A program made the position numbers and the translations under genes. Positions 16,073 to 58,767 of a DNA stretch of 64,000 nt are shown here, piece by piece. The DNA is from an uncultured Bacteroidales bacterium (lineage in GTDB: Bacteria > Bacteroidota > Bacteroidia > Bacteroidales > FEN-979). Below the pieces are notes generated by a model. The model was not told where the DNA came from and made no database searches. It saw nothing but the letters and a program-made list of their open reading frames with translations. The stretch covers positions 277,991-341,990 of the forward strand of contig CAVYJI010000019.1 of assembly GCA_963768805.1 (NCBI GenBank), read 5' to 3'. Within the stretch, counting starts at the first letter, position 1. Every line of letters starts with the position of its first letter.

Positions 16073-16099
16073 TCCCCACTATTCCCCACCTGTCCCCAC
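16073..16099 (-). promoter_or_regulatory. Putative MraZ operator: three direct GTGGGGA repeats with exact 10-bp phasing
   Basis: The plus strand reads TCCCCAC at 16073-16079, 16083-16089 and 16093-16099, which is 38-64 bp upstream of the mraZ start. This matches the known architecture of MraZ boxes: direct G-rich repeats at 10-bp spacing. Confidence 0.6.
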
Positions 16100-16192
16100 T
16101 GATTTTTTTGTAAATTGTTAATAACTTTTTTTAAAGAATCAGTAAATAGCTCATTTTATGTATCTTACAAAACATAAGTAAAAAAAAGTTGT

Positions 16193-16338
16193 AATCACGG
16201 GTATAAACCCTAGGGCAAGCCCTGTACCTAAATTCCGCCCCAAGGGGCGGGATATTATACCCTCCGACTTCGTCGGGATTGTTCAACTATCAATTTTAAT
16301 TCACTATGTTCTTAAAATTGAAGTTTCACGAATAAATC
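16193..16338 (+). repeat. 146-bp structured intergenic repeat, copy 1 (upstream of the sigma-54 regulator gene)
   Basis: 138/146 identical to 17753-17898, and the last 66 bp are identical. It contains palindromes AGGGCAAGCCCT (16212-16223), CCGCCCCAAGGGGCGG (16235-16250) and CCGACTTCGTCGG (16264-16276). Confidence 0.9.
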
Positions 16339-16436
16339 GTATGTGGAAAATGGAGAGCTGCAATTTTGAATGTGGTTGAATTCAAGGAACAGGAGAATTC
16401 AAATTTCTCTTATCTTTGAAAAAATAATAGACGCCA

Positions 16437-17597
16437 ATGCCGAGGATCCTGGTAATCGATGATGAAAAAAGTATTCGTAATACATTACGTGAAATTCTGC
16501 AATATGAAAAGTATGAAGTAGATGATGTTGCGAATGGCCCGGATGGTCTGAAATTTTTAGAATCAAATAAATACAATGCAATCCTGTGCGATATTAAAAT
16601 GCCGGGGATGGATGGCATTGAAGTGCTTGAAAAAATTCTTCTGATGGTTGATACACCTGTCATCATGATCTCAGGGCATGGGACCATTGATACCGCTGTT
16701 GAAGCCATCAAGAAAGGGGCATTCGATTACATTTCAAAGCCTCTGGATTTAAACCGTCTTCTGATAACAATCAGGAATGCGTTGGAGAAATCGAACCTGG
16801 TCAATGAAACGAAGGTCCTTAAAAGGAAGATAAATGGAGTCCACGAAATGATCGGTGAATCAGAAGCAATGCATAAGGTAAAAGACCTTATCGCCAAAGT
16901 AGCTCCGACCGATGCGCGTGTTCTGATCACCGGTGAAAGTGGAACGGGGAAGGAACTTGTTGCCCGTTGGTTGCATGCATTGAGTAATCGTTCAGAAAAT
17001 CCATTCATTGAAGTAAATTGTGCTGCCATTCCTTCCGAGCTTATTGAGAGCAACCTTTTTGGACATGAAAAGGGGTCTTTTACTTCTGCCATCAGGCAGA
17101 GAAAAGGAGATTTTGAGCTGGCTAATGGAGGCACATTATTCCTGGATGAAATAGGGGATATGAGTCTTTCTGCTCAATCCAAGGTTCTGAGGGCCCTGCA
17201 GGAAAATAAGATAACACGGGTAGGTGGGGAAAAAGAAATCCCAGTTGATGTCAGGGTAATTGCCGCAACGAACAAAAACATAAAGGAAGAGCTGGAGAAA
17301 AAAAATTTCCGTGAGGATCTCTATCACAGGTTAAGTGTAATACTTATTGATATACCACCTCTTTCCAAACGGCTTGATGACCTTCCACTACTGACCAACC
17401 ACTTTATTGGCGAAATCTGCCAACACCAGGGGAAAGCCCCGCTTGCGATCATGGATGAAGCTTTAGAAGCTTTGAAAAAGATAAGGTGGACAGGGAATAT
17501 CCGTGAGTTACGAAACGTAATCGAGCGGTTGGTGATTCTTTGTGATGGAAAGATAACAGAAGCGGATGTCAAAAAGTATTCGATGCCATTGTACTAG
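16437..17597 (+). CDS. Sigma-54-dependent response regulator (REC plus AAA+ domains, no C-terminal HTH)
   Basis: The REC domain carries the [12 protein letters not shown] acceptor region. The AAA+ domain has Walker A GESGTGKE, Walker B LFLDEI, the sigma-54 contact loop GSFTSA and the R-finger RELRN. The protein ends about 25 aa after the AAA+ lid. Confidence 0.9.
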
Positions 17598-17752
17598 TGT
17601 TGATAGTTGCCGCTGCATCCATGTAAACCATTTTCATACATTTTTAGTACCACATTACTACTTCCTCATTCATCGGGAATCGAGGTACAGAAGGAAATGA
17701 AAAGGGCCGGGGAATTTAAGGGTAAATAACCATCACAGTGTATTATATCAAA

Positions 17753-17898
17753 AATCACGTGTATAAACCCCAGGGCAAGCCCTGGACCCTAATTCCGCCC
17801 CAAGGGGCGGGGTATTATACACTCCGACTTCATCGGGATTGTTCAACTATCAATTTTAATTCACTATGTTCTTAAAATTGAAGTTTCACGAATAAATC
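17753..17898 (+). repeat. 146-bp structured intergenic repeat, copy 2 (upstream of the PqqD-like gene)
   Basis: Same element as 16193-16338, offset by exactly 1560 bp in the same orientation. Confidence 0.9.
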
Positions 17899-17935
17899 AA
17901 GGTCATATAAACAAAAACTAATCTCAAAAGAATCC

Positions 17936-18196
17936 ATGAAACTGCGAAAAAATGTTGCTGTAAGTGAAGCGGGTTTACTTTTCAATCCGGTGACCGGGGA
18001 ATCTTTTTCGGTTAACCCGATTGGTGTTGATATCATTAATCTGATCCGGGAAGACAAAGGGTTGGAGTACATCAGTAAATTCATACTTGCGAAGTATGAA
18101 ACAGATAAGGCCACATTTGAAAAAGATTATAATGATTTTATCGGGATCCTGGGACATAACAACCTTATAGAGACAAATGAAGAAAAGAAAGCTTAA
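17936..18196 (+). CDS. PqqD-family small protein (peptide-chaperone/RRE-like)
   Basis: 86 aa. Shows the LFNPVTGESFSVNPIGVDIINLI... pattern typical of PqqD-like winged-helix proteins. It overlaps the next gene by 20 nt. Confidence 0.65.
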   Translation: MKLRKNVAVSEAGLLFNPVTGESFSVNPIGVDIINLIREDKGLEYISKFILAKYETDKATFEKDYNDFIGILGHNNLIETNEEKKA

Positions 18197-19223
18197 CATT
18201 GCCATCACCGGGTTGAATGCGATAGACAGTCCGGGTCCCGGTATTCCTGTAATAAGAGCGCTGAGAGAGGCATCATCATTCGATGTAAGGATCATTGGTC
18301 TTTCCTATGAATCGCTTGAGCCGGGCATTTATATGCACGACCTTGTGGACCGCACCTATTCAATTCCTTATCCCACAGCCGGGACCGACACTTTACTTGC
18401 CCGTCTTGAATATATTCATGAAAAGGAGAAACTTGATGTGATCATCCCAAACTTCGATTCAGAACTTTTCCCGTTTATCAAACTGGAAATCAAACTCAGG
18501 GCACTTGGCATTCACATGTTCCTGCCGACGATTCATCAGTTTGAAGAGAGACAAAAGGTTAATCTCAATGAATTTGGGAAGAAGTACAACTTAAAAATCC
18601 CGAAAAGCAAAGCTGTTTGGGATCCAAATAACCTGTCCGGACTCAAGTCAGAATTCTCATTCCCCATGATCGTTAAAGGGAAATTTTACGAAGCCTCAGT
18701 TGCATACAGCATCGACCAGGTAAAAAGTTATTTCAATAAAATAAGCGCAAAATGGGGACTTCCCATCATCATCCAGGAATTCATCCTTGGGACAGAATAC
18801 AATGTGACCGGGCTAGGCGACGGCAAAGGCAATACAATTGCAGCTGTTCCGATGCGCAAACAATATATCACAGACAAGGGAAAAGCATGGGGAGGCATTT
18901 CGATCGCTGATGAGAAGATGATTGATATGACCCGCAAATTCCTGAAAACCACAAAATGGCGGGGCGGTTTTGAGTTAGAGCTGATGAAAAACAAAGACGA
19001 TGAGCTTTACCTGTTAGAAATAAACCCCAGACTGCCGGCATGGATCTACCTTGCAGTAGGAGTCGGACAAAATATTCCAGAAGCACTGGTCAACCTGGCC
19101 ATGGGAGTAAAAGTGAAACCTTTTACCACCTACGACGTAGGAAAAATGTTCATACGTTATTCATGGGATATGATCGTCGACAGGGAAGAATTCGAGAAGA
19201 TCAGCATTTACGGAGAGTTATAA
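18177..19223 (+). CDS. ATP-grasp domain ligase (carboxylate-amine ligase type)
   Basis: 348 aa with the ATP-grasp core: FPMIVKGKF, IIIQEFILGTEYNV, and ELYLLEINPRLPAW (the E-x-N Mg/ATP motif). Confidence 0.85.
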   Translation: MKKRKLNIAITGLNAIDSPGPGIPVIRALREASSFDVRIIGLSYESLEPGIYMHDLVDRTYSIPYPTAGTDTLLARLEYIHEKEKLDVIIPNFDSELFPFIKLEIKLRALGIHMFLPTIHQFEERQKVNLNEFGKKYNLKIPKSKAVWDPNNLSGLKSEFSFPMIVKGKFYEASVAYSIDQVKSYFNKISAKWGLPIIIQEFILGTEYNVTGLGDGKGNTIAAVPMRKQYITDKGKAWGGISIADEKMIDMTRKFLKTTKWRGGFELELMKNKDDELYLLEINPRLPAWIYLAVGVGQNIPEALVNLAMGVKVKPFTTYDVGKMFIRYSWDMIVDREEFEKISIYGEL

Positions 19224-19240
19224 CAATAAAAACATAAGAG

Positions 19241-20602
19241 ATGAACAAGTTGCGATATGAACGGCCTGTAATTAAGAAACTTGAGACCGGAATGCCAAAT
19301 AAATTCGGAACAAGGACAGAATATGAACCCATGATCCACATCGATGGTGTCGCAGTGAAAGATCTGATCAAAGAATTTGGCTCACCGTTATTTGTTATCT
19401 CAGAAAGGACCATCCGTGAAACAATAAAGAAGGCAAAAAAGGCTTTTGGTACCCGTTATCCTAAAGTTCAGTTTGCCTGGTCGTATAAGACCAATTATCT
19501 AAATGCTGTCTGCAGTATTTTCCATCAGGAAGGATCCTGGGCAGAAGTGGTATCGGGTTTTGAATACGAAAAAGCCATCAAACTGGGAGTAGATGGCAGG
19601 AAGATCATTTTTAACGGTCCTGATAAAAGTGAAAAAGATCTTACCAGGGCAATTACCAACGATTCTCTTATACATATTGATCATCTTGATGAATTATATT
19701 CCATAACAGAACTGGCTGATAAGCTTAAAAAACGTCCGCGAGTGGCTGTAAGGGTCAATATGGATACGGGGGTATATCCTATGTGGGACCGATTCGGGTT
19801 TAACTATGAAAACGGCCAGGCATGGGATGCCATCAACAAGATCATGCATTCAGAAAAGATGGAACTGGTCGGACTTCATTGCCATATCGGTACATTTATG
19901 TTTTCACCCTTTGCATACAGCACTGCAGCATCCAAGCTTGTCGAACTGGCACTTGCCATCGAACAGAAATTCAAGCATGAAATTCAATATATCGATATGG
20001 GAGGCGGGTTTGCTTCAAGGAACACACTGAAAGGATCCTACCTTCCGGGTTCCGACTCCAATCCAACTTTTGATGATTTTGCAGAAGCAATTTCCACAGC
20101 ACTGATAAACGGTAATTTCAAAAAAAACAAGCTGCCTTTACTTATTCTTGAAACCGGCCGTGCCTTGATTGATGAGGCTGGTTATTTGCTGGGAACCGTG
20201 ATCTCGAACAAGCGTTCAAGCTCCGGCCGTCGTAATACAATCATCGATGTCGGGGTTAATATCCTCTTTACATCTTTCTGGTATGATCACAAGATCACAC
20301 CGGCACAACCGTTCACACATTATTCCGAAGACACCTGCGTGTTTGGGCCGCTTTGCATGAACATCGATGTGATCCGCGAAAGCGCCAACCTGCCGCTGCT
20401 CAACATGGGAGACCATCTGGTGATCCACAACGTAGGCGCTTACAACATGACACAGTGGATGCAGTTCATTACTTTAAGGCCAAACGTGGTGCTGATAGAC
20501 ATGGACGAGAAACCACATCTGATCAGAATCAAGGAATCGCTGGAGAATATGAACGACATGGAGCGGATACCTTCATATCTAAAAAACCGGGAAAAAGCGT
20601 GA
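19241..20602 (+). CDS. PLP-dependent decarboxylase, Orn/DAP/Arg decarboxylase (fold-type III) family
   Basis: FAWSYKTNY (PLP-lysine region), HCHIGT, IDMGGGF and ILETGRALIDEAGYL motifs, with an N-terminal barrel plus C-terminal beta domain layout. Confidence 0.88.
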   Translation: MNKLRYERPVIKKLETGMPNKFGTRTEYEPMIHIDGVAVKDLIKEFGSPLFVISERTIRETIKKAKKAFGTRYPKVQFAWSYKTNYLNAVCSIFHQEGSWAEVVSGFEYEKAIKLGVDGRKIIFNGPDKSEKDLTRAITNDSLIHIDHLDELYSITELADKLKKRPRVAVRVNMDTGVYPMWDRFGFNYENGQAWDAINKIMHSEKMELVGLHCHIGTFMFSPFAYSTAASKLVELALAIEQKFKHEIQYIDMGGGFASRNTLKGSYLPGSDSNPTFDDFAEAISTALINGNFKKNKLPLLILETGRALIDEAGYLLGTVISNKRSSSGRRNTIIDVGVNILFTSFWYDHKITPAQPFTHYSEDTCVFGPLCMNIDVIRESANLPLLNMGDHLVIHNVGAYNMTQWMQFITLRPNVVLIDMDEKPHLIRIKESLENMNDMERIPSYLKNREKA

Positions 20603-20656
20603 TATTTGATAATTAATAAAATATCTGAACTTTGCACTTCATTTAAGGGTTGACAG

Positions 20657-21214
20657 TTGGGTTTAAATAAACTGAAATATCTATTACCCTCATTTTTCTC
20701 CGGTATAGTTAACAGTTATACTCAGATCTTCTTTTCGAACAGCAGGGTCTTTGCACTTATCCTGATGGTGGTGTCTTTTTTAGATTTCTGGGCGGGCTTG
20801 AGCGGCCTGATCGCAATTGTAATTTCGAATACCCTTGCTTACCTGATAGGGTTCAACCGGTTAAACATAAAAAAAGGCTATTATGGGTTTAACAGCCTGT
20901 TGGTCGGTTTGGCGCTCGGCATATACTATCAGCCCGGACCTGAATTTTTCATTGTACTCGTTTTTTCTTCGGTACTTACCCTTTTCCTCACTATACTCCT
21001 TGAAGGGGTTATCGGAAAATACGGATTGCCTTTCCTGAGTATTTCATTTTTACTTGCTACCTGGCTTGTAAGCCTTGCCACGCGGCAATTTACCGCGCTT
21101 CATGTCAGCGAGCGGGGCATCTTTATGACCAACGAGATGTTTGCATTAGGCGGACACCGGATGGTATCATTCTATAACTGGCTGTTAAACCTGGATATCT
21201 ATGGCCCTCGTTAG
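20657..21214 (+). CDS. Urea-transporter (UT/SLC14)-like membrane protein, first half-channel (TTG start)
   Basis: 185 aa, about 5 TM helices. The FFSGIVNSYTQIFFSNS...AGLSGLIAIVISNTLAYLIGF pattern resembles the first pseudo-repeat of UT channels. It stops inside a 14-nt overlap with the next ORF. Confidence 0.55.
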   Translation: MGLNKLKYLLPSFFSGIVNSYTQIFFSNSRVFALILMVVSFLDFWAGLSGLIAIVISNTLAYLIGFNRLNIKKGYYGFNSLLVGLALGIYYQPGPEFFIVLVFSSVLTLFLTILLEGVIGKYGLPFLSISFLLATWLVSLATRQFTALHVSERGIFMTNEMFALGGHRMVSFYNWLLNLDIYGPR

Positions 21215-22868
21215 AGTTTATTTTACTTCTCTCGGGGCCATTTTTTTTCAATATCATCTCTTTGCAGGTATACTTGTCGCTATAGGGCTTCTCATCTATT
21301 CACGAATTGCATTTATCCTCTCCCTGACAGGTTTCTTTTCAGCCTGGGCCTATTACCATTTTATTGGAGCCGATATCCGTGAACTCAGCTACAGTTTCAT
21401 CGGCTTTAATTTTATCCTCACTTCGATCGCCATTGGCGGTTTTTTCATCATTCCATCACGGTGGTCATTTTTATGGGTTATCCTTCTGACTCCACTAATT
21501 TCAATCATTCTGACAAGCACCAATGTTATATTTTCAATCTTTCAGCTTTCTGTTTATTCCCTGCCTTTCAACATCGTTGTCCTGATCTTTCTCTATTCGC
21601 TGAAGTTCAGGGAACGATTCTATGATAAACCCCAGTTGGTAACTTTCCAGCAATTTTCGCCTGAGAAAAATCTTTATTCGCACATGAATTACAAAGAGCG
21701 TTTCGGTAAATCACTTTTTTACACATTTGCCTTACCGTTCTGGGGTGAATGGAAAGTGACCCAAAGCCATAATGGCAAGTATACCCACCAGGGCGATTGG
21801 CGTCATGCATGGGATTTTGAAGTGACTGATGAGGAGGGGCTTACTTACTCAGGAAGTGGAAAAACCCGGGAAGACTACTATGCATACAACAAACCAGTAA
21901 TTGCGCCTGCTGATGGCTATGTGGAAGAGATTGTTGATGATATTGAGGAAAATGAGATAGGAGAGTCGGACCTGGAACATAACTGGGGAAACACCATCAT
22001 CCTTCGCCATTCGGACCATCTTTATTCAACGCTGTCACACCTTAAAAAAGAAAGCTTTAAAGTGGCAGAAGGAGATACCGTGAAGAAGGGACAGGTTCTT
22101 GCAAATTGCGGGAGTTCGGGACGGTCGCCTGTGCCTCACCTTCATTTCCAGATCCAGGGAAACCCTTATATAGGATCGAAAACACTAGATTATCCTATCA
22201 GTCATTATATCCGTCATAAAGATGGGAATTTCGAGCTAAGATCATATGAATCGCCTGAAAACGATGTCCTTGTATCGAATATTACAAAAAACAGCTCTTT
22301 GAAAAAGGCATTTCATTTTATCCCCGGGCAAAAGTTCAGATTCGCTGCAATTGAGACAGGGGAGAAGGAATACCAGGTAAACTGGGAGGTTCAGGCCGAT
22401 GCCCTCAACAATACCTCTATTTATTGCGAATCCAGCAGATCGCGTGCATATTTCCGTAATGATGGCGATATTCATTATTTTACCCATTTTGAGGGAAATA
22501 AATCATCGCTGCTCTTTAAATTTTATCTTGGAGCTTACAAGATAATGATGGGGTATTACAGCAACCTGCTGGTGAAAGACCGGCTACCAGTAAACACATT
22601 CAACAATCCGTTGGTAAAGCTTGGGCAGGATTTTCTTGCTCCATTTCTGATCTTTTCCTGTTCAGAGTACAGTCTTACTTATCTGAACATGAATGATGCA
22701 CTCATGCAAACCAATATCAGGTTACGGTCGATGATACGTGCAAAGGTTGGCAGGCATGAAATTAAAAAGCTGGAATGTGAGTTGTTTGTTGGACCCGAGG
22801 GGCTCGAGCGGTTCGTGATCCATGAAAGTAAGCGATTAACCGAAGTCAGACTTGTGCAAGAAAAATGA
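21201..22868 (+). CDS. Fusion protein: second UT-like half-channel + M23 (LytM) metallopeptidase + C-terminal domain of unknown function
   Basis: The N-terminal ~130 aa (YFTSLGAIFFQYHLFAGILVAIG...) mirror the motif of the previous ORF. The M23 domain has HQGDWRHAWDF and GSSGRSPVPHLHFQI (H-x-H). About 230 further residues have no recognisable motif. Confidence 0.8.
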   Translation: MALVRVYFTSLGAIFFQYHLFAGILVAIGLLIYSRIAFILSLTGFFSAWAYYHFIGADIRELSYSFIGFNFILTSIAIGGFFIIPSRWSFLWVILLTPLISIILTSTNVIFSIFQLSVYSLPFNIVVLIFLYSLKFRERFYDKPQLVTFQQFSPEKNLYSHMNYKERFGKSLFYTFALPFWGEWKVTQSHNGKYTHQGDWRHAWDFEVTDEEGLTYSGSGKTREDYYAYNKPVIAPADGYVEEIVDDIEENEIGESDLEHNWGNTIILRHSDHLYSTLSHLKKESFKVAEGDTVKKGQVLANCGSSGRSPVPHLHFQIQGNPYIGSKTLDYPISHYIRHKDGNFELRSYESPENDVLVSNITKNSSLKKAFHFIPGQKFRFAAIETGEKEYQVNWEVQADALNNTSIYCESSRSRAYFRNDGDIHYFTHFEGNKSSLLFKFYLGAYKIMMGYYSNLLVKDRLPVNTFNNPLVKLGQDFLAPFLIFSCSEYSLTYLNMNDALMQTNIRLRSMIRAKVGRHEIKKLECELFVGPEGLERFVIHESKRLTEVRLVQEK

Positions 22869-24373
22869 GAAAATTTATTTTTTTATTTATCCAAATCCTA
22901 TTCATCACAAGTATTGCAAGGTCCCAGGCCAGGCTTGATTTCAGGGTGGTTGATGAAAAGACAGGCCGATATTTCAATGAACAGAAATGGGATAGTGTAA
23001 TCAGGCTTGGGAAGAAGGCATTGCACCAAAGTATCGATTATTATTATCTGAGGGTAAGAATGGGCATCTCATATTTTAAGAAACAGAAATACTTCACTGC
23101 AGTTTCATTCCTGAAGAAAGCAAGTACATTTAACTCTGCTGATTCAATGATCACGGATTATCTATACCGTTCTTATCTATATACTAACAATGAGGATGAA
23201 GCACAAATACTAAAGAATAAAATACCAAAAGAAGCCCGGGTCACAAAAACATCAAGAAACGGAATCCTTGAGCAGGTTCATTTTGAAGGAGGATATAGCC
23301 TGAGCAATGACAAGTCATCAGTTAATATTCCAAACCTAAGTGGAACATTCAAAACTTCCAAGGACAATGACTATTATAGTGAGCAGGATCTTTATGGAAA
23401 CAGTTGGTATGGTAATCTTGGATTGACGATGAGGATATTTAAAAGATTAAGCCTTTCATTATCGTACAATTATCTCAGCCTGGATAAATCTACATATATC
23501 CAGGACGGTCATTTTCAGGATCGTTTTATGGGTACTGTCGATTCAGCCGGGGGGAAACTTTACCGTTATACGTTCCCCTGGATCACCCACGATACAAGTT
23601 TTCATTATACTATTATACAGCATGAAGGACACCTCGGCATCACAGTGACTTTACCGGCAGGATTTAAAATCCAGCCGGCATTTCATCTTATCTATGTGGC
23701 ATATAAAACGACCAATGTCAACTTCAGGGCGGGAACCATACAGGACACTGCTTATCATTCGCCAACTAAAACCACCTATCATCCCTTTACCCATTATGAC
23801 TATTCATTTGTTCAGAATGACACTTCATTTTACAATTATGTGATATCACTCCTGGTCACAAAAGATATTAAGATATTTAATATAGGGTTATCTCTTAGTT
23901 GGTCCAACCTGAACAATATGACACAGGAACAAGCAGGACTTATGCTGACATATTACCCGCTCGGGAACCTTGATTTTTACGGAACAACAGCTGCAACAGG
24001 TTTTTTACAGGGAAATGAGAGCCGCATACTTCTGAGCCAGGTATTGGGCACAAAAGTCACAAGATGGTGGTGGCTTGAAGGAAATTTCTATTGGGGCAAT
24101 TATTCCAATACCAATATTTTCAATGGCGCTGTAGTTTATAATAACAGCGATAAAATTGATTACCATGCCGGGGTTTCACTGATTTTTATCCTCGGTAAAC
24201 ATGTTCAGCTATCATTAATATACCAGTATCTAAGTGAAGAAAGCCCGCTGTTCTATAACGTTAAAAGGCCGGCTCCGGGACAGGGTCCGTTGCAGATCAA
24301 TGAACAACCGCAAATAACATATATCCCGTATAACACTAACACAATAATAGGAGGAATCACATGGAAACTTTAG
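22865..24373 (+). CDS. Secreted protein: N-terminal TPR-like helices plus a putative outer-membrane beta-barrel (hypothetical)
   Basis: Signal peptide MRKFIFLFIQILFITSIARSQA. The C-terminal ~350 aa have an alternating aromatic/polar beta-strand pattern (YSLS.., LSLSYNYLSL, LSLIYQYL). ATGA start/stop overlap with the upstream gene. Confidence 0.45.
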   Translation: MRKFIFLFIQILFITSIARSQARLDFRVVDEKTGRYFNEQKWDSVIRLGKKALHQSIDYYYLRVRMGISYFKKQKYFTAVSFLKKASTFNSADSMITDYLYRSYLYTNNEDEAQILKNKIPKEARVTKTSRNGILEQVHFEGGYSLSNDKSSVNIPNLSGTFKTSKDNDYYSEQDLYGNSWYGNLGLTMRIFKRLSLSLSYNYLSLDKSTYIQDGHFQDRFMGTVDSAGGKLYRYTFPWITHDTSFHYTIIQHEGHLGITVTLPAGFKIQPAFHLIYVAYKTTNVNFRAGTIQDTAYHSPTKTTYHPFTHYDYSFVQNDTSFYNYVISLLVTKDIKIFNIGLSLSWSNLNNMTQEQAGLMLTYYPLGNLDFYGTTAATGFLQGNESRILLSQVLGTKVTRWWWLEGNFYWGNYSNTNIFNGAVVYNNSDKIDYHAGVSLIFILGKHVQLSLIYQYLSEESPLFYNVKRPAPGQGPLQINEQPQITYIPYNTNTIIGGITWKL

Positions 24374-25062
24374 TAAGTCACAGAGTCACAGAGTCACAAA
24401 GTCACAAAGTAATAGAATTTCGCCATCCCACCACCTGCTGGCAGGCAAGCAGGTTTTACTATTTTGCTATTTTACTATTTCTGCTTATCTCGCCGGTTCT
24501 TCACTCACAAAACTATCCTGCCCTCCAGGAGGCATTCGGTAAAAGTTATGACTATGAAGCCAAGGGAAATTATACAGAAGCGATTTCGGCCTTAAAGAAT
24601 GTGTATCAAGAAGATTCATATGAAATCAACCTTCGCCTTGGATGGGAAACCTATCTTGCGGGGCTTTTTACTGAATCGTCAGCTTATTATGAGAAGGCTA
24701 TAAACCTTAAACCTTATGCGATTGAGCCCAAATTCGGGTTTGTTTACCCTGCTTCAGCGTTAGGGAACTGGGACCAGGTCATTGCCCAGTATAATGAGAT
24801 CCTGAAGATCGATTCTCAGAATACGCTTGCAAACTACCGGATGGGATCGATCTATTATGGCAGAAAGGATTATGCAAAAGCTGACAAATACCTTGAGAAG
24901 ACTATAAACCTCTATCCTTTTGATTATGACAGCCTTATTCTATATGCATGGACGAACTTAAAACTGGGAAAGATGCGCGAAGCCCAGGTCCTCTTTAACA
25001 AGGTGTTACTGAATCGGCCAAAAGACTCTTCAGCACTTGAGGGGCTTTCTCTTATCAAGTGA
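24361..25062 (+). CDS. Tetratricopeptide-repeat protein (secreted or lipoprotein-like)
   Basis: Hydrophobic signal-like segment FYYFAILLFLLISPVLHSQ followed by TPR units (AISALKNVY.., SSAYYEKAINLKP, ANYRMGSIYYGRKDYAKADKYLEKTINLYP). 13-nt overlap with the upstream gene. Confidence 0.7.
   Translation: METLVSHRVTESQSHKVIEFRHPTTCWQASRFYYFAILLFLLISPVLHSQNYPALQEAFGKSYDYEAKGNYTEAISALKNVYQEDSYEINLRLGWETYLAGLFTESSAYYEKAINLKPYAIEPKFGFVYPASALGNWDQVIAQYNEILKIDSQNTLANYRMGSIYYGRKDYAKADKYLEKTINLYPFDYDSLILYAWTNLKLGKMREAQVLFNKVLLNRPKDSSALEGLSLIK
24376..24410 (+). repeat. 8-bp tandem repeat (AGTCACAR x4.4) at the 5' end of the TPR gene
   Basis: AGTCACAG AGTCACAG AGTCACAA AGTCACAA AGT, read directly. It starts 3 nt after the stop of the upstream gene. 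Confidence 0.85.
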
Positions 25063-34257: not shown

Positions 34258-34857
34258 TTACCTGTCCTCCAGTTTTATTTCATAAACGTTGTCTATATTA
34301 TAATATATACGAAATAATGGTTTAAAGCCATTTTTAAAGACAGCAAGCAGTGGCCTTACCCCGATTAAATAAGCAGTCCAGTTCCTTGCCAATCTGAATT
34401 TTTTATGCCTTACTATTTTAAAACCGGCAGGGGTCAATAACCATTTTTCAAAATGTTTACGGTCATATTCAAAGAAATGATGACTTGTCCACAACCATCG
34501 TGGCTTTGAAGGAAAAGAAATATAAAGCAAAGAATCTTCCTTCATCACCTTTTTGATCTGCATTAAAAAGAAGAGCGGATTTTGCAAATGTTCCAATACC
34601 TCAAGACAAAAGATAGTATCATATTGTTTTGCGGGAAGTGGATCAAAGTTGAAATCATTAACCATAATTTGCTCTACGTCAATTTTAAGCAGGCGTTTTA
34701 TTTCTTCCATTTTCTTATTTGAAGAACTTATATCAGCATAAGTGCCTTCTCTCTTTTTGATAAAACCAGCGATAGATCCTGCCAATTTTATCAGAATACG
34801 TTGATCTTGTGAAGCAAGATCGTCTTCACTGAATCCTGGATATAAAACATCATTCAT
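34258..34857 (-). CDS. SAM-dependent methyltransferase-like protein (divergent motif I)
   Basis: YDTIFCLEVLEHLQNP and MKEDSLLYISFP post-I motifs of Methyltransf_11/23-type enzymes. The glycine-rich motif I is poorly conserved. Confidence 0.55.
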   Translation of the reverse strand: MNDVLYPGFSEDDLASQDQRILIKLAGSIAGFIKKREGTYADISSSNKKMEEIKRLLKIDVEQIMVNDFNFDPLPAKQYDTIFCLEVLEHLQNPLFFLMQIKKVMKEDSLLYISFPSKPRWLWTSHHFFEYDRKHFEKWLLTPAGFKIVRHKKFRLARNWTAYLIGVRPLLAVFKNGFKPLFRIYYNIDNVYEIKLEDR

Positions 34858-34951
34858 TGCTTATACTTCTGTTTAGTGGGTTATTTGGATAAAAATTGTT
34901 CTGACAGTGTTTCAATTGTTTTTTTAATCTTTTCCGTTGGACGAGGGTCAA

Positions 34952-34990
34952 TCCGCCTCAGGCGGACAAGTTCCCCGCCTCCTGAGGCGG
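34952..34990. repeat. Two adjacent GC-rich palindromic hairpins (REP-like)
   Basis: TCCGCCTCAGGCGGA (34952-34966) and CCGCCTCCTGAGGCGG (34975-34990). They have the same CCGCCYC...GRGGCGG design as the central palindrome of the 146-bp repeats. Confidence 0.6.
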
Positions 34991-35290
34991 AAACAATTCA
35001 ATTTATTTTGATACCCCGGCTTGTGGCGAGGAGGTTCATTAACTGATTAGATTAATGCATAGTATAGAACTCAAGAAGATGTGCAAATGTAGAATATTTT
35101 TCACCTCCCGACTAATCCATAAATAAAATTATAGTTGCTGACAAACCCGGAGAGGTGGTGAGGTGGTGGATTTTTTTATGTCCGTTGTTCATTATTTACT
35201 TAAATCTGATAATCGTTACCTTTGCCGCTAGTATTAATTCATGGTAAAAGATGCAAGAATCCGGAGTTAGGGTTAACTGATCCTGAGATC

Positions 35291-58343: not shown

Positions 58344-58396
58344 TAAAAAAAAACCTCCGAAATAGCTGTTATTACTACTAATTCGGAGGTTTTTTT
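58344..58396. terminator. Bidirectional intrinsic terminator (serves tmRNA on minus and the GNAT-like operon on plus)
   Basis: A 9-bp stem ACCTCCGAA / TTCGGAGGT with a 20-nt loop, flanked by A9 and T6 runs. Confidence 0.6.
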
Positions 58397-58397
58397 G

Positions 58398-58767
58398 TGG
58401 AGTTGGAGGGAGTCGAACCCTCGTCCATACAGGCAGCAAAAGTGTTTTCTACATGCTTAGTTTCCGTTTGGTTGTCGGCAGCAGGCCAGCCGGAAACGGT
58501 CTTACCTGATACTTAGTTCCTGATCTTTCATCCTTTCATCGGAACGCTGAAAGGACCATCTCAACATTTTCGATGCCTCATCCGGAACACCGTTGAGAGA
58601 GGTTTTCCGGGAGACAAGAGGCGCTTAATTTCTAAAATTAAGCAGCCAGTCTGTAAGAATAATTGTCGCCATTTATTGGCTGTGGGAATTGACTTTTAAC
58701 GGGACCTGTTCCCAACGCCCGGCATGCTTGCAATTCCACTTCCCTGCTGTCAAAACCGGTCAACCCC
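58398..58767 (-). ncRNA. ssrA: tmRNA (transfer-messenger RNA)
   Basis: The minus strand starts GGGGTTGACCGGTTTTGACAGC...GCAAGCATGCCGGG and ends GGGTTCGACTCCCTCCAACTCCA (T-arm plus acceptor). The tag ORF GGC GAC AAT TAT TCT TAC AGA CTG GCT GCT TAA (58670-58638) encodes GDNYSYRLAA. Confidence 0.9.

Follow-up and report, generated by a model that had tools for sequence, protein, structure and literature searches.

The DNA examined here is a 64-kb window (the whole stretch analysed, 64,000 nucleotides of contig CAVYJI010000019.1 from an uncultured Bacteroidales bacterium, assembly GCA_963768805.1) in which a gene for a sigma-54 activator lies between two direct repeats. The first repeat occupies the spacer between mraZ and the activator gene, and the second lies between the activator gene and an operon that begins with genes for a PqqD and an ATP-grasp protein. 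The repeats are a feature of an ordinary sort; they do not form a dedicated cassette for regulation. With a probability of roughly 85%, they are two copies of a non-autonomous, protein-less derivative of an IS200/IS605-type insertion sequence, known as a palindrome-associated transposable element (PATE). Multi-copy dispersal, shared boundaries, covarying stems, the lack of inverted repeats and target duplications, and the homology of both ends to elements that carry the transposase gene tnpA were all observed directly.

The repeat pair and its surroundings

Repeat search and pairwise alignment bore out the original prediction as to the pair itself, which consists of direct repeats of 146 nt each at 16193-16338 and 17753-17898, offset by 1560 nt and identical at 138 of 146 positions. 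The eight mismatches between copy 1 and copy 2 fall at 16200, 16211, 16225, 16229, 16230, 16252, 16261, and 16272, and the 3′-most 66 nt of both copies are free of any. A 62-nt piece from the 3′ part of the repeat and a 16-mer of the repeat were each found at only these two places in the window (shuffle expectations of 0 and 0.26, respectively). An unfiltered scan of the window with R1, a covariance model built from 32 copies of the element family, returned only two full copies. In transposon orientation, which is the minus strand, copy 1 has its left end at 16331 and its right end (...GTGATT) at 16193. Two related loci are used for comparison: L008, from a Bacteroidales metagenome-assembled genome (MAG) with coding DNA about 84% identical to that of the window, and L134, which is the closest by its ATP-grasp protein (88%).

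16193-16331, minus strand: copy 1, probable mobile unit of a non-autonomous IS200/IS605-type element (PATE); R1 score of 165 bits; family-wide boundaries; no counterpart in the orthologous spacers of L008 and L134
16332-16336, minus strand: putative target motif flanking copy 1, directly 5′ of the left end; reads TTTAT on the minus strand (ATAAA on the plus)
17753-17891, minus strand: copy 2, probable mobile unit of the same element as copy 1; R1 score of 169 bits; common to L008 (4577-4720, 156 bits)
17892-17896, minus strand: putative target motif flanking copy 2, TTTAT on the minus strand
16437-17597, plus strand: sigma-54 activator gene (receiver and AAA+ domains by Pfam), between the two copies and not part of the element
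34925-35040, minus strand: probable third family member, diverged, a short form with an additional hairpin; R1 score of 18 bits, E 0.08

A dispersed family with covarying stems

A 20-mer from one hairpin of the repeat (P3, listed below) matched 86 stretches in a collection of species-representative genomes, with many matches per single genome in Smithella, Syntrophaceae, and Treponema and further ones in Bacteroidales, Spirochaetia, cyanobacteria, Clostridia, and other groups. The Smithella copies are about 140 nt long, start with AATCACGGGTATGAAC and end with GAGTCTCACAATAA, and have the boundaries and the five stems of the window copies. A 23-mer specific to the 3′ part of the window element was found in 22 metagenome stretches, in each of which the flanks differed on both sides. 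Scanning the fetched loci with R1 added further copies, with as many as four in 8 kb. Shorter or longer variants are present in Treponema, cyanobacteria, Clostridia, Xenorhabdus, Trichlorobacter, and viral contigs; the Treponema variant is 184 nt long, and its copies are 100% identical with sharp ends. The family as recovered in this analysis spans at least seven phyla. The stretch at 34925-35040 of the window, which sits in a divergent intergenic region upstream of the gene starting at 34857, gave a z of about 9 versus shuffles upon global alignment to the Trichlorobacter and Xenorhabdus copies.

The boundaries of the element were constant across more than 60 family copies, running from AATCAC... 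to ...CAC(G)AATAAA. On the tnpA-sense strand, equivalent to the minus strand of the window, every copy is preceded by TTTAT, TTGAT, TTCAT, or TTTAA. The left-end motif varies among otherwise identical Treponema copies, reading either AATAAA or AATCAA (TTTAT or TTGAT on the other strand), and therefore behaves as flanking target DNA outside the element. Presence at many unrelated intergenic sites had been named beforehand as the outcome that would speak against a regulatory module, and this is what was found for the family. The dispersal instead supports another option in the same prediction, a repeat resembling a miniature inverted-repeat transposable element (MITE) or a repetitive extragenic palindrome (REP), though the element is of the IS200/IS605 (PATE) type and has no inverted terminal repeats.

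No match to the element was obtained in Rfam for the whole window, for the region at E values up to 10, for 15 family loci, or for three plasmid loci, and a literature search with the hairpin sequences found no paper describing the family. The sequence family thus appears to be undescribed, having neither an Rfam model nor a matching paper; a covariance model with clear boundaries is now supplied for its annotation. Searches of particular collections were negative for the window copy in plasmids, for the enterobacterial form in Escherichia coli genomes, and for the first 20-mer in viral contigs, where a relaxed pattern gave four matches.

The copies fold with energies of −47.8 and −49.1 kcal/mol (z of about −5.4 versus shuffles). 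Five stems were defined, with the following positions in copy 1.

16199-16206 with 16255-16262: stem P1, joining the inner flanks of the two end hairpins, GGGTATAA/TTATACCC; supported by fold and covariation
16210-16225 (copy 2, 17770-17785): stem P2, right-end subterminal hairpin, (CT)AGGG-CAAG-CCCT(GT); supported by fold and covariation
16235-16250 (copy 2, 17795-17810): stem P3, left-end subterminal hairpin in transposon orientation, CCGCCCC-AA-GGGGCGG; covaries
16264-16331: stems P4 (16264-16276) and P5 (16279-16331), together a folded insert that separates the target motif from the left-end hairpin; supported by covariation

Each copy had been credited with three GC-rich palindromes in the original prediction, and covariation was obtained for all three stems. 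None of the three is a perfect palindrome, not even the 16-mer that had been described as one; they are inverted repeats around a centre of 2-3 nt, and CCGCCCCAAGGGGCGG is a 7-nt inverted repeat around AA that differs at two positions when read on the reverse strand. The first stem (P2) is indeed longer in copy 2, but folding gave 4-5 bp for copy 1 and 6 bp for copy 2, around a CAAG loop, instead of the 5 and 7 bp stated. Two helices had been missed altogether. One is P1, a long-range stem around hairpins P2 and P3, and the other is P5, a long AT-rich hairpin that holds a 9-codon mini-ORF (open reading frame; 16306-16335) and a candidate promoter −7 box (16313-16320).

RNAalifold on a plain MAFFT alignment recovered P5 only, and P1-P4 were specified by hand and then tested against slid and shuffled controls. 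In the 32-copy alignment, 94.4% of the cells of the five-stem structure form standard pairs versus 35-51% when the partners are slid by 1-3 columns, and 17 pairs are changed on both sides versus 3-6 in the slid controls. The covariation score was 0.207 versus at most 0.061, and none of 500 shuffles reached the observed values. The stems are therefore real and under selection.

Individual stems illustrate the pattern. Two of the mismatches between the window copies, 16200 (G to T) and 16261 (C to A), form a compensatory pair in P1 (alignment pair 8-86, GC in 28 copies and UA in 2). P3 varies between CCGCCCC/GGGGCGG and CCGCTGC/GCAGCGG. P4 (CCGAC-TTC-GTCGG) alternates between CCGAC/GTCGG and CCGCC/GGCGG, with two pairs changed on both sides. 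P5 has nine such pairs, with 97-98% of cells paired; six pairs in its upper part are further examples of covariation. The P4/P5 insert is present in the Smithella and window subtypes and missing from the short forms of cyanobacteria, Xenorhabdus, Trichlorobacter, and viral contigs.

Relation to tnpA-carrying elements

When a short cyanobacterial copy was compared by BLAST with annotated plasmids, a P3-like hairpin was found in several records. In Pseudanabaena plasmid pPSE7367.01 and a Megaera plasmid, an annotated IS200/IS605 tnpA lies between P3-like and P2-like hairpins: TTTAA and about 20 nt come before the P3-like hairpin, which directly precedes tnpA, and beyond the tnpA stop codon comes the P2-like hairpin (CCCCGCTGCTTGCGGCGGGG), about 9 nt short of the end. 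The same two ends enclose tnpA and a passenger gene in Pantoea stewartii pDSJ05 (a methylase) and Edwardsiella tarda pEtSC002-4 (a gene of unknown function). P3 is thus homologous to the hairpin directly upstream of tnpA in the Pseudanabaena, Megaera, Pantoea, and Edwardsiella elements, and the counterpart of P2 in the full-length relatives is a CCCCGC..GCAAGC..GCGGGG hairpin just past the tnpA stop codon. Between Enterobacterales, Rickettsiales, Burkholderiales, and cyanobacteria, members of the tnpA clade are 75-82% identical, in keeping with element ends that are spread across phyla. In the Edwardsiella (L123, 2940-3000) and Pantoea (L124, 2945-2990) elements, a nearly perfect hairpin of about 37-47 nt was also seen just inside the left-end hairpin.

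PATEs are defined by the lack of terminal inverted repeats, the lack of a target duplication, and a length too short to encode a protein (PMC3119063), and they are thought to be mobilised in trans by TnpA (PMC10055086). Terminal inverted repeats were not found in the element, the left 24 nt being unrelated to the reverse complement of the right 24 nt. Nor was a target-site duplication detected among 47 copies, whose junctions shared 8 k-mers versus 7.1 in re-paired flanks at k = 6 and 0 versus 1.8 at k = 7. Hairpins lie near both termini, P2 at one end and P3 (plus P4/P5) towards the other. At 139-146 nt the element is too short for a transposase, and its only ORF has 9 codons. Together with the flanking TTTAT/TTGAT/TTTAA motif, these properties match the published definition.

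In the reference element IS608 of Helicobacter pylori, the cleavage sites lie 19 nt 5′ of the left and 10 nt 3′ of the right hairpin, and the target motif, TTAC, is outside the element (PMC3201880). The corresponding spacings in the full-length relatives found here are about 20 and about 9 nt, with about 19 nt on the left in the short forms, and the motif of the family (TTTAT, TTGAT, or TTTAA) is likewise short, AT-rich, and adjoining the insertion. IS608 and ISDra2 further resemble the family in having no terminal inverted repeats, no target duplication, and differing ends each with a subterminal hairpin. Unlike them, the window copies encode no protein and carry the P4/P5 insert and a long-range stem joining the ends, and the four full-length relatives examined have tnpA alone or tnpA with a passenger gene but no tnpB. 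PATEs of Haloquadratum walsbyi and Geobacillus stearothermophilus are, like the element here, presumed to be trans-mobilised by TnpA (PMC10055086); they belong to another sequence family, and no link to an omega RNA or to TnpB was seen for the element here. Classical MITEs such as Correia and ERIC are likewise small intergenic elements that occur in many copies without genes of their own and can carry promoters or influence neighbouring genes, but they have terminal inverted repeats and usually target duplications, both of which are absent here. The element is therefore of a known kind, a compact case of gene-less IS200 derivatives spread over many phyla, and its widespread sequence family is of modest interest for work on mobile DNA.

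By analogy with IS608, a Y1 tyrosine transposase (TnpA) encoded elsewhere in the genome would bind both hairpins on single-stranded DNA, excise the strand as a circle, and re-insert it 3′ of another TTTAT-like motif, leaving no duplication. On the minus strand of the window, the order for such a reaction would be the TTTAT motif, the left end with P3, the right end with P2, and the terminus ...GTGATT. P1 may keep the two ends together. P4 and P5 would constitute a folded spacer, P5 closing at the terminus and bringing the cleavage site near the left-end hairpin, and this role could be why both stems covary. Such extra stems may show how single-strand transposon ends tolerate insertions. We infer, rather than observe, which hairpin TnpA binds, whether the element is currently active, and whether it affects any neighbouring gene.

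Several observations weigh against assignment of the pair to the PATEs. A Y1 transposase gene is present neither within the 64-kb window nor adjoining most copies. The spacings of the window subtype, about 85 nt from the motif to the left hairpin and 17 nt from the right hairpin to the terminus, are unlike those of IS608; stems P5/P4 and P1 bridge them, and the idea of a folded spacer would reconcile the two. The exact 20-mer matched once in the only relative genome searched (the L008/L016 MAG), and copy number in the lineage of the window may therefore be low. In a folding strand test, G-T outnumbered A-C combinations by 63 to 35, with counts of 29 and 35, which favour neither strand clearly, once two lineage-inherited pairs were removed. 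Finally, the window and L008 share all but 5 of the 334 positions of the regulator-PqqD spacer (17581-17914; 98.5% identity), compared with about 84% identity in the flanking genes, and this conservation is not accounted for by a selfish element alone.

With respect to the missing transposase, a Pfam scan of 129 ORFs neighbouring Treponema copies yielded no transposase among the 25 most frequent families listed. A search with the tnpA clade did not reveal the parent element of the window subtype; it gave thousands of matches, and none of the 120 best listed named Bacteroidota or Smithella.

The strand asymmetry bears on a different explanation, namely that the repeat is a stand-alone structured RNA: a small RNA, a riboswitch-like leader, or an omega-RNA-like guide scaffold acting with TnpB or IscB in trans. 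The strong fold (z of −5.4) and its covariation would suit such an RNA, as would two frequent G-U pairs that are valid on the plus strand only, and PATEs elsewhere often encode omega RNAs (PMC10055086). The bias, however, is gone from the corrected strand counts (29 versus 35), and the copies are randomly oriented relative to genes. Rfam gave no match even at E values up to 10 for the window and 18 other loci, no TnpB- or IscB-like ORF stands beside any copy examined, and the four full-length relatives carry tnpA, or tnpA with a passenger, and not tnpB. Omega RNAs of TnpB and IscB, which are structured RNAs at an IS200/IS605 end that sometimes survive in gene-less PATEs, differ from the element in the same respects: there is no nuclease gene in the loci examined, no Rfam (HEARO) match, and no tnpB or iscB in those four relatives, although a nuclease may act in trans. 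A free-standing RNA is accordingly very unlikely. The idea that the copies mark the right end of a TnpB element was also tried and rejected, as the ORFs that end just upstream of copies are housekeeping genes, for example those for DnaJ-like and ProC-like proteins.

The link to Y1 enzymes would also be expected of a REP or REPIN repeat mobilised by a domesticated REP-associated tyrosine transposase (RAYT), with no deletion of an IS200 element involved. REPs too are hairpin-forming, multi-copy intergenic repeats handled by an enzyme of the same Y1 HUH superfamily, and some database names for the tnpA clade read "REP element-mobilizing transposase RayT." In one locus (L103), moreover, a Y1 transposase gene lies between two copies. 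REPs are much shorter, symmetric, and flank the RAYT gene, however, whereas here the unit measures 139-184 nt, has two different ends, and is neither a palindrome of 20-40 nt nor two such palindromes in inversion, and in the full-length relatives tnpA lies inside both ends, which is the arrangement of an insertion sequence. The L103 gene is itself interrupted by a copy and has its own, different hairpins upstream. Mobilisation by a RAYT is for these reasons a highly improbable account of the repeats.

The gene in L103 (4245-4918) encodes an IS200-like Y1 transposase domain (PF01797, E 3.6e-16); it is interrupted after ...SHWIN by a window-type copy, and the second copy lies 70 nt upstream. It was considered as the partner transposase of the element and not shown to be so, given the interruption and the differing upstream hairpins.

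Insertion history and the neighbouring genes

L008 shares the regulator, the regulator-PqqD spacer, and copy 2 with the window but lacks copy 1. In L134 the gap between regulator and PqqD is only 63 nt, its sequence is unrelated to the spacer of the window, and neither copy is present. In relatives further removed, PqqD is preceded by an AraC gene and the element is missing. The comparison shows that the regulator was there first and that copy 2 and then copy 1 arrived as successive insertions. At 16200, 16261, and 16272, copy 1 has the family consensus, whereas copy 2 and L008 are derived, so that copy 1 was not copied from the present copy 2. Copy 1 is thus a later, separate insertion into the mraZ-regulator spacer, and the 1560-bp offset is without functional meaning.

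The same evidence disposes of the notion that the pair is a local segmental duplication or, as the original prediction had allowed, the scar left when the regulator gene was inserted. Direct repeats around exactly one gene are what such events would leave, but the repeat boundaries are the family-wide element boundaries, the regulator is in place in L008 without copy 1 and next to PqqD in L134 without either copy, and copy 1 retains consensus bases where copy 2 and L008 are derived. We regard duplication or scarring as scarcely credible.

The pair had been interpreted above all as a promoter or leader module duplicated for co-regulation. In this form, whatever its origin, the element would provide the regulator gene and the PqqD/ATP-grasp operon alike with an outward Bacteroidota promoter, with TAAAATTG as its −7 box, or with a 5′ leader, thereby coupling their expression. 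Both copies point in the same direction as the next downstream gene, at distances of 98 and 37 nt, and TAAAATTG agrees with TAnnTTTG at seven of eight positions. In relatives that lack the element, a similar TAATATTG lies some 30-35 nt upstream of PqqD, and the high identity of the regulator-PqqD spacer in L008, relative to its flanking genes, would also suit a regulatory role.

Across the family, however, copies show no preference in orientation relative to genes. Among 66 family copies, the upstream neighbour was on the same strand for 26 and on the opposite strand for 27, and the downstream neighbour for 27 and 27, which speaks against the family existing to serve as leaders, terminators, or promoters. 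A Bacteroidota promoter was taken to consist of TTTG at −33 and TAnnTTTG at −7, 19-21 nt apart, and no TTTG was read from the sequence 19-21 nt upstream of TAAAATTG. The resemblance to a −7 box holds at seven positions while the −33 element is missing; moreover, the box is the 3′ arm of covarying stem P5, and its conservation can be explained by pairing within that stem. A scan for sigma-70-type promoters found no site inside the element on its own strand. The element is also abundant in Smithella, a member of the Desulfobacterota, which are not known to use the Bacteroidota-type −33/−7 promoter. The mini-ORF, identical in the two copies and put forward as a further common feature, is not conserved, as most copies of its subtype have GCG, GTG, or a different codon in place of the ATG.

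Duplication for co-regulation is consequently unsupported as an explanation of why the repeat exists, and coupling of the two transcription units by the element is unlikely. An effect on transcription at these two particular sites is possible, since both copies face the next gene. For annotation, the apparent regulatory cassette becomes a call of a mobile element.

Two further readings would go beyond single insertions. Read on the minus strand, the two copies together might form a composite transposon of the IS200/IS605 type, whose outer limits would be 17891 (left end of copy 2) and 16193 (right end of copy 1) and whose 1.7-kb span would include the sigma-54 activator gene. If TnpA were supplied in trans, the regulator could then be excised or moved along as cargo, and the passenger genes of the full-length relatives are a precedent. 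Relatedly, Bacteroidota might have recruited the element as a promoter that can be carried from site to site; this would explain why two diverged lineages have an almost unchanged regulator-PqqD spacer. Both are distinctly unlikely. That spacer may alternatively reflect a recent exchange between lineages or a strong constraint. Its first 155 nt (17598-17752) are peculiar to this lineage, with no other copy anywhere and no stable fold (z of +0.8), and they were rejected as part of a larger element or RNA.

Because the copies lie in direct orientation, homologous recombination between them, and possibly the transposase, could remove the sigma-54 activator gene, as the original prediction had noted for recombination. 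Such a loss may matter for control of the operon downstream, which is very conserved and of unknown function.

The sigma-54 activator (386 amino acids) has a receiver, an AAA+ domain, and an AAA lid, ends right after the lid, and contains no DNA-binding helix-turn-helix; its orthologues in L014 and L134 are of equal length. No TGGCAC-N5-TTGC promoter was evident by eye in the spacers beside its gene.

The operon at 17936-25062 encodes PqqD, the ATP-grasp protein, a pyridoxal phosphate-dependent decarboxylase, a urea-transporter/M23 fusion, and a 502-amino acid protein. It is extremely conserved, the ATP-grasp protein being 80-88% identical over more than 100 clusters, and was also found in loci L006, L010, L012-L014, L134, and L135. 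It adjoins cell-wall or division genes (the dcw cluster or mrdA-rodA) in five of eight distinct contexts (window/L008, L006, L010, L013, and L135), and no cell-wall gene was present within the fetched stretches of L012, L014, and L134. An AraC-type regulator gene lies upstream of the operon in six of the eight (L006, L010, L012, L013, L014, and L135), directly so except in L014. In the window, the gene for the urea-transporter-like/M23 peptidase occupies two frames (20657-21214 and 21201-22868), whereas L001 has one gene of 736 amino acids. L001 and the window are 99.9% identical and their alignment contains one gap, so a 1-nt indel accounts for the split, through misassembly or a genuine frameshift.

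On the other side of copy 1, at 16075-16100, three CCCCAC repeats (GTGGGG on the minus strand) are spaced by exactly 10 nt; they precede the start of mraZ (16036, minus strand) by about 40-65 nt and are also present in L008. By their likeness to the E. coli mraZ operator, they are candidate MraZ operator boxes. Elsewhere in the window, a transfer-messenger RNA (tmRNA) gene was identified at 58395-58767 on the minus strand (Rfam RF00023, 155 bits).

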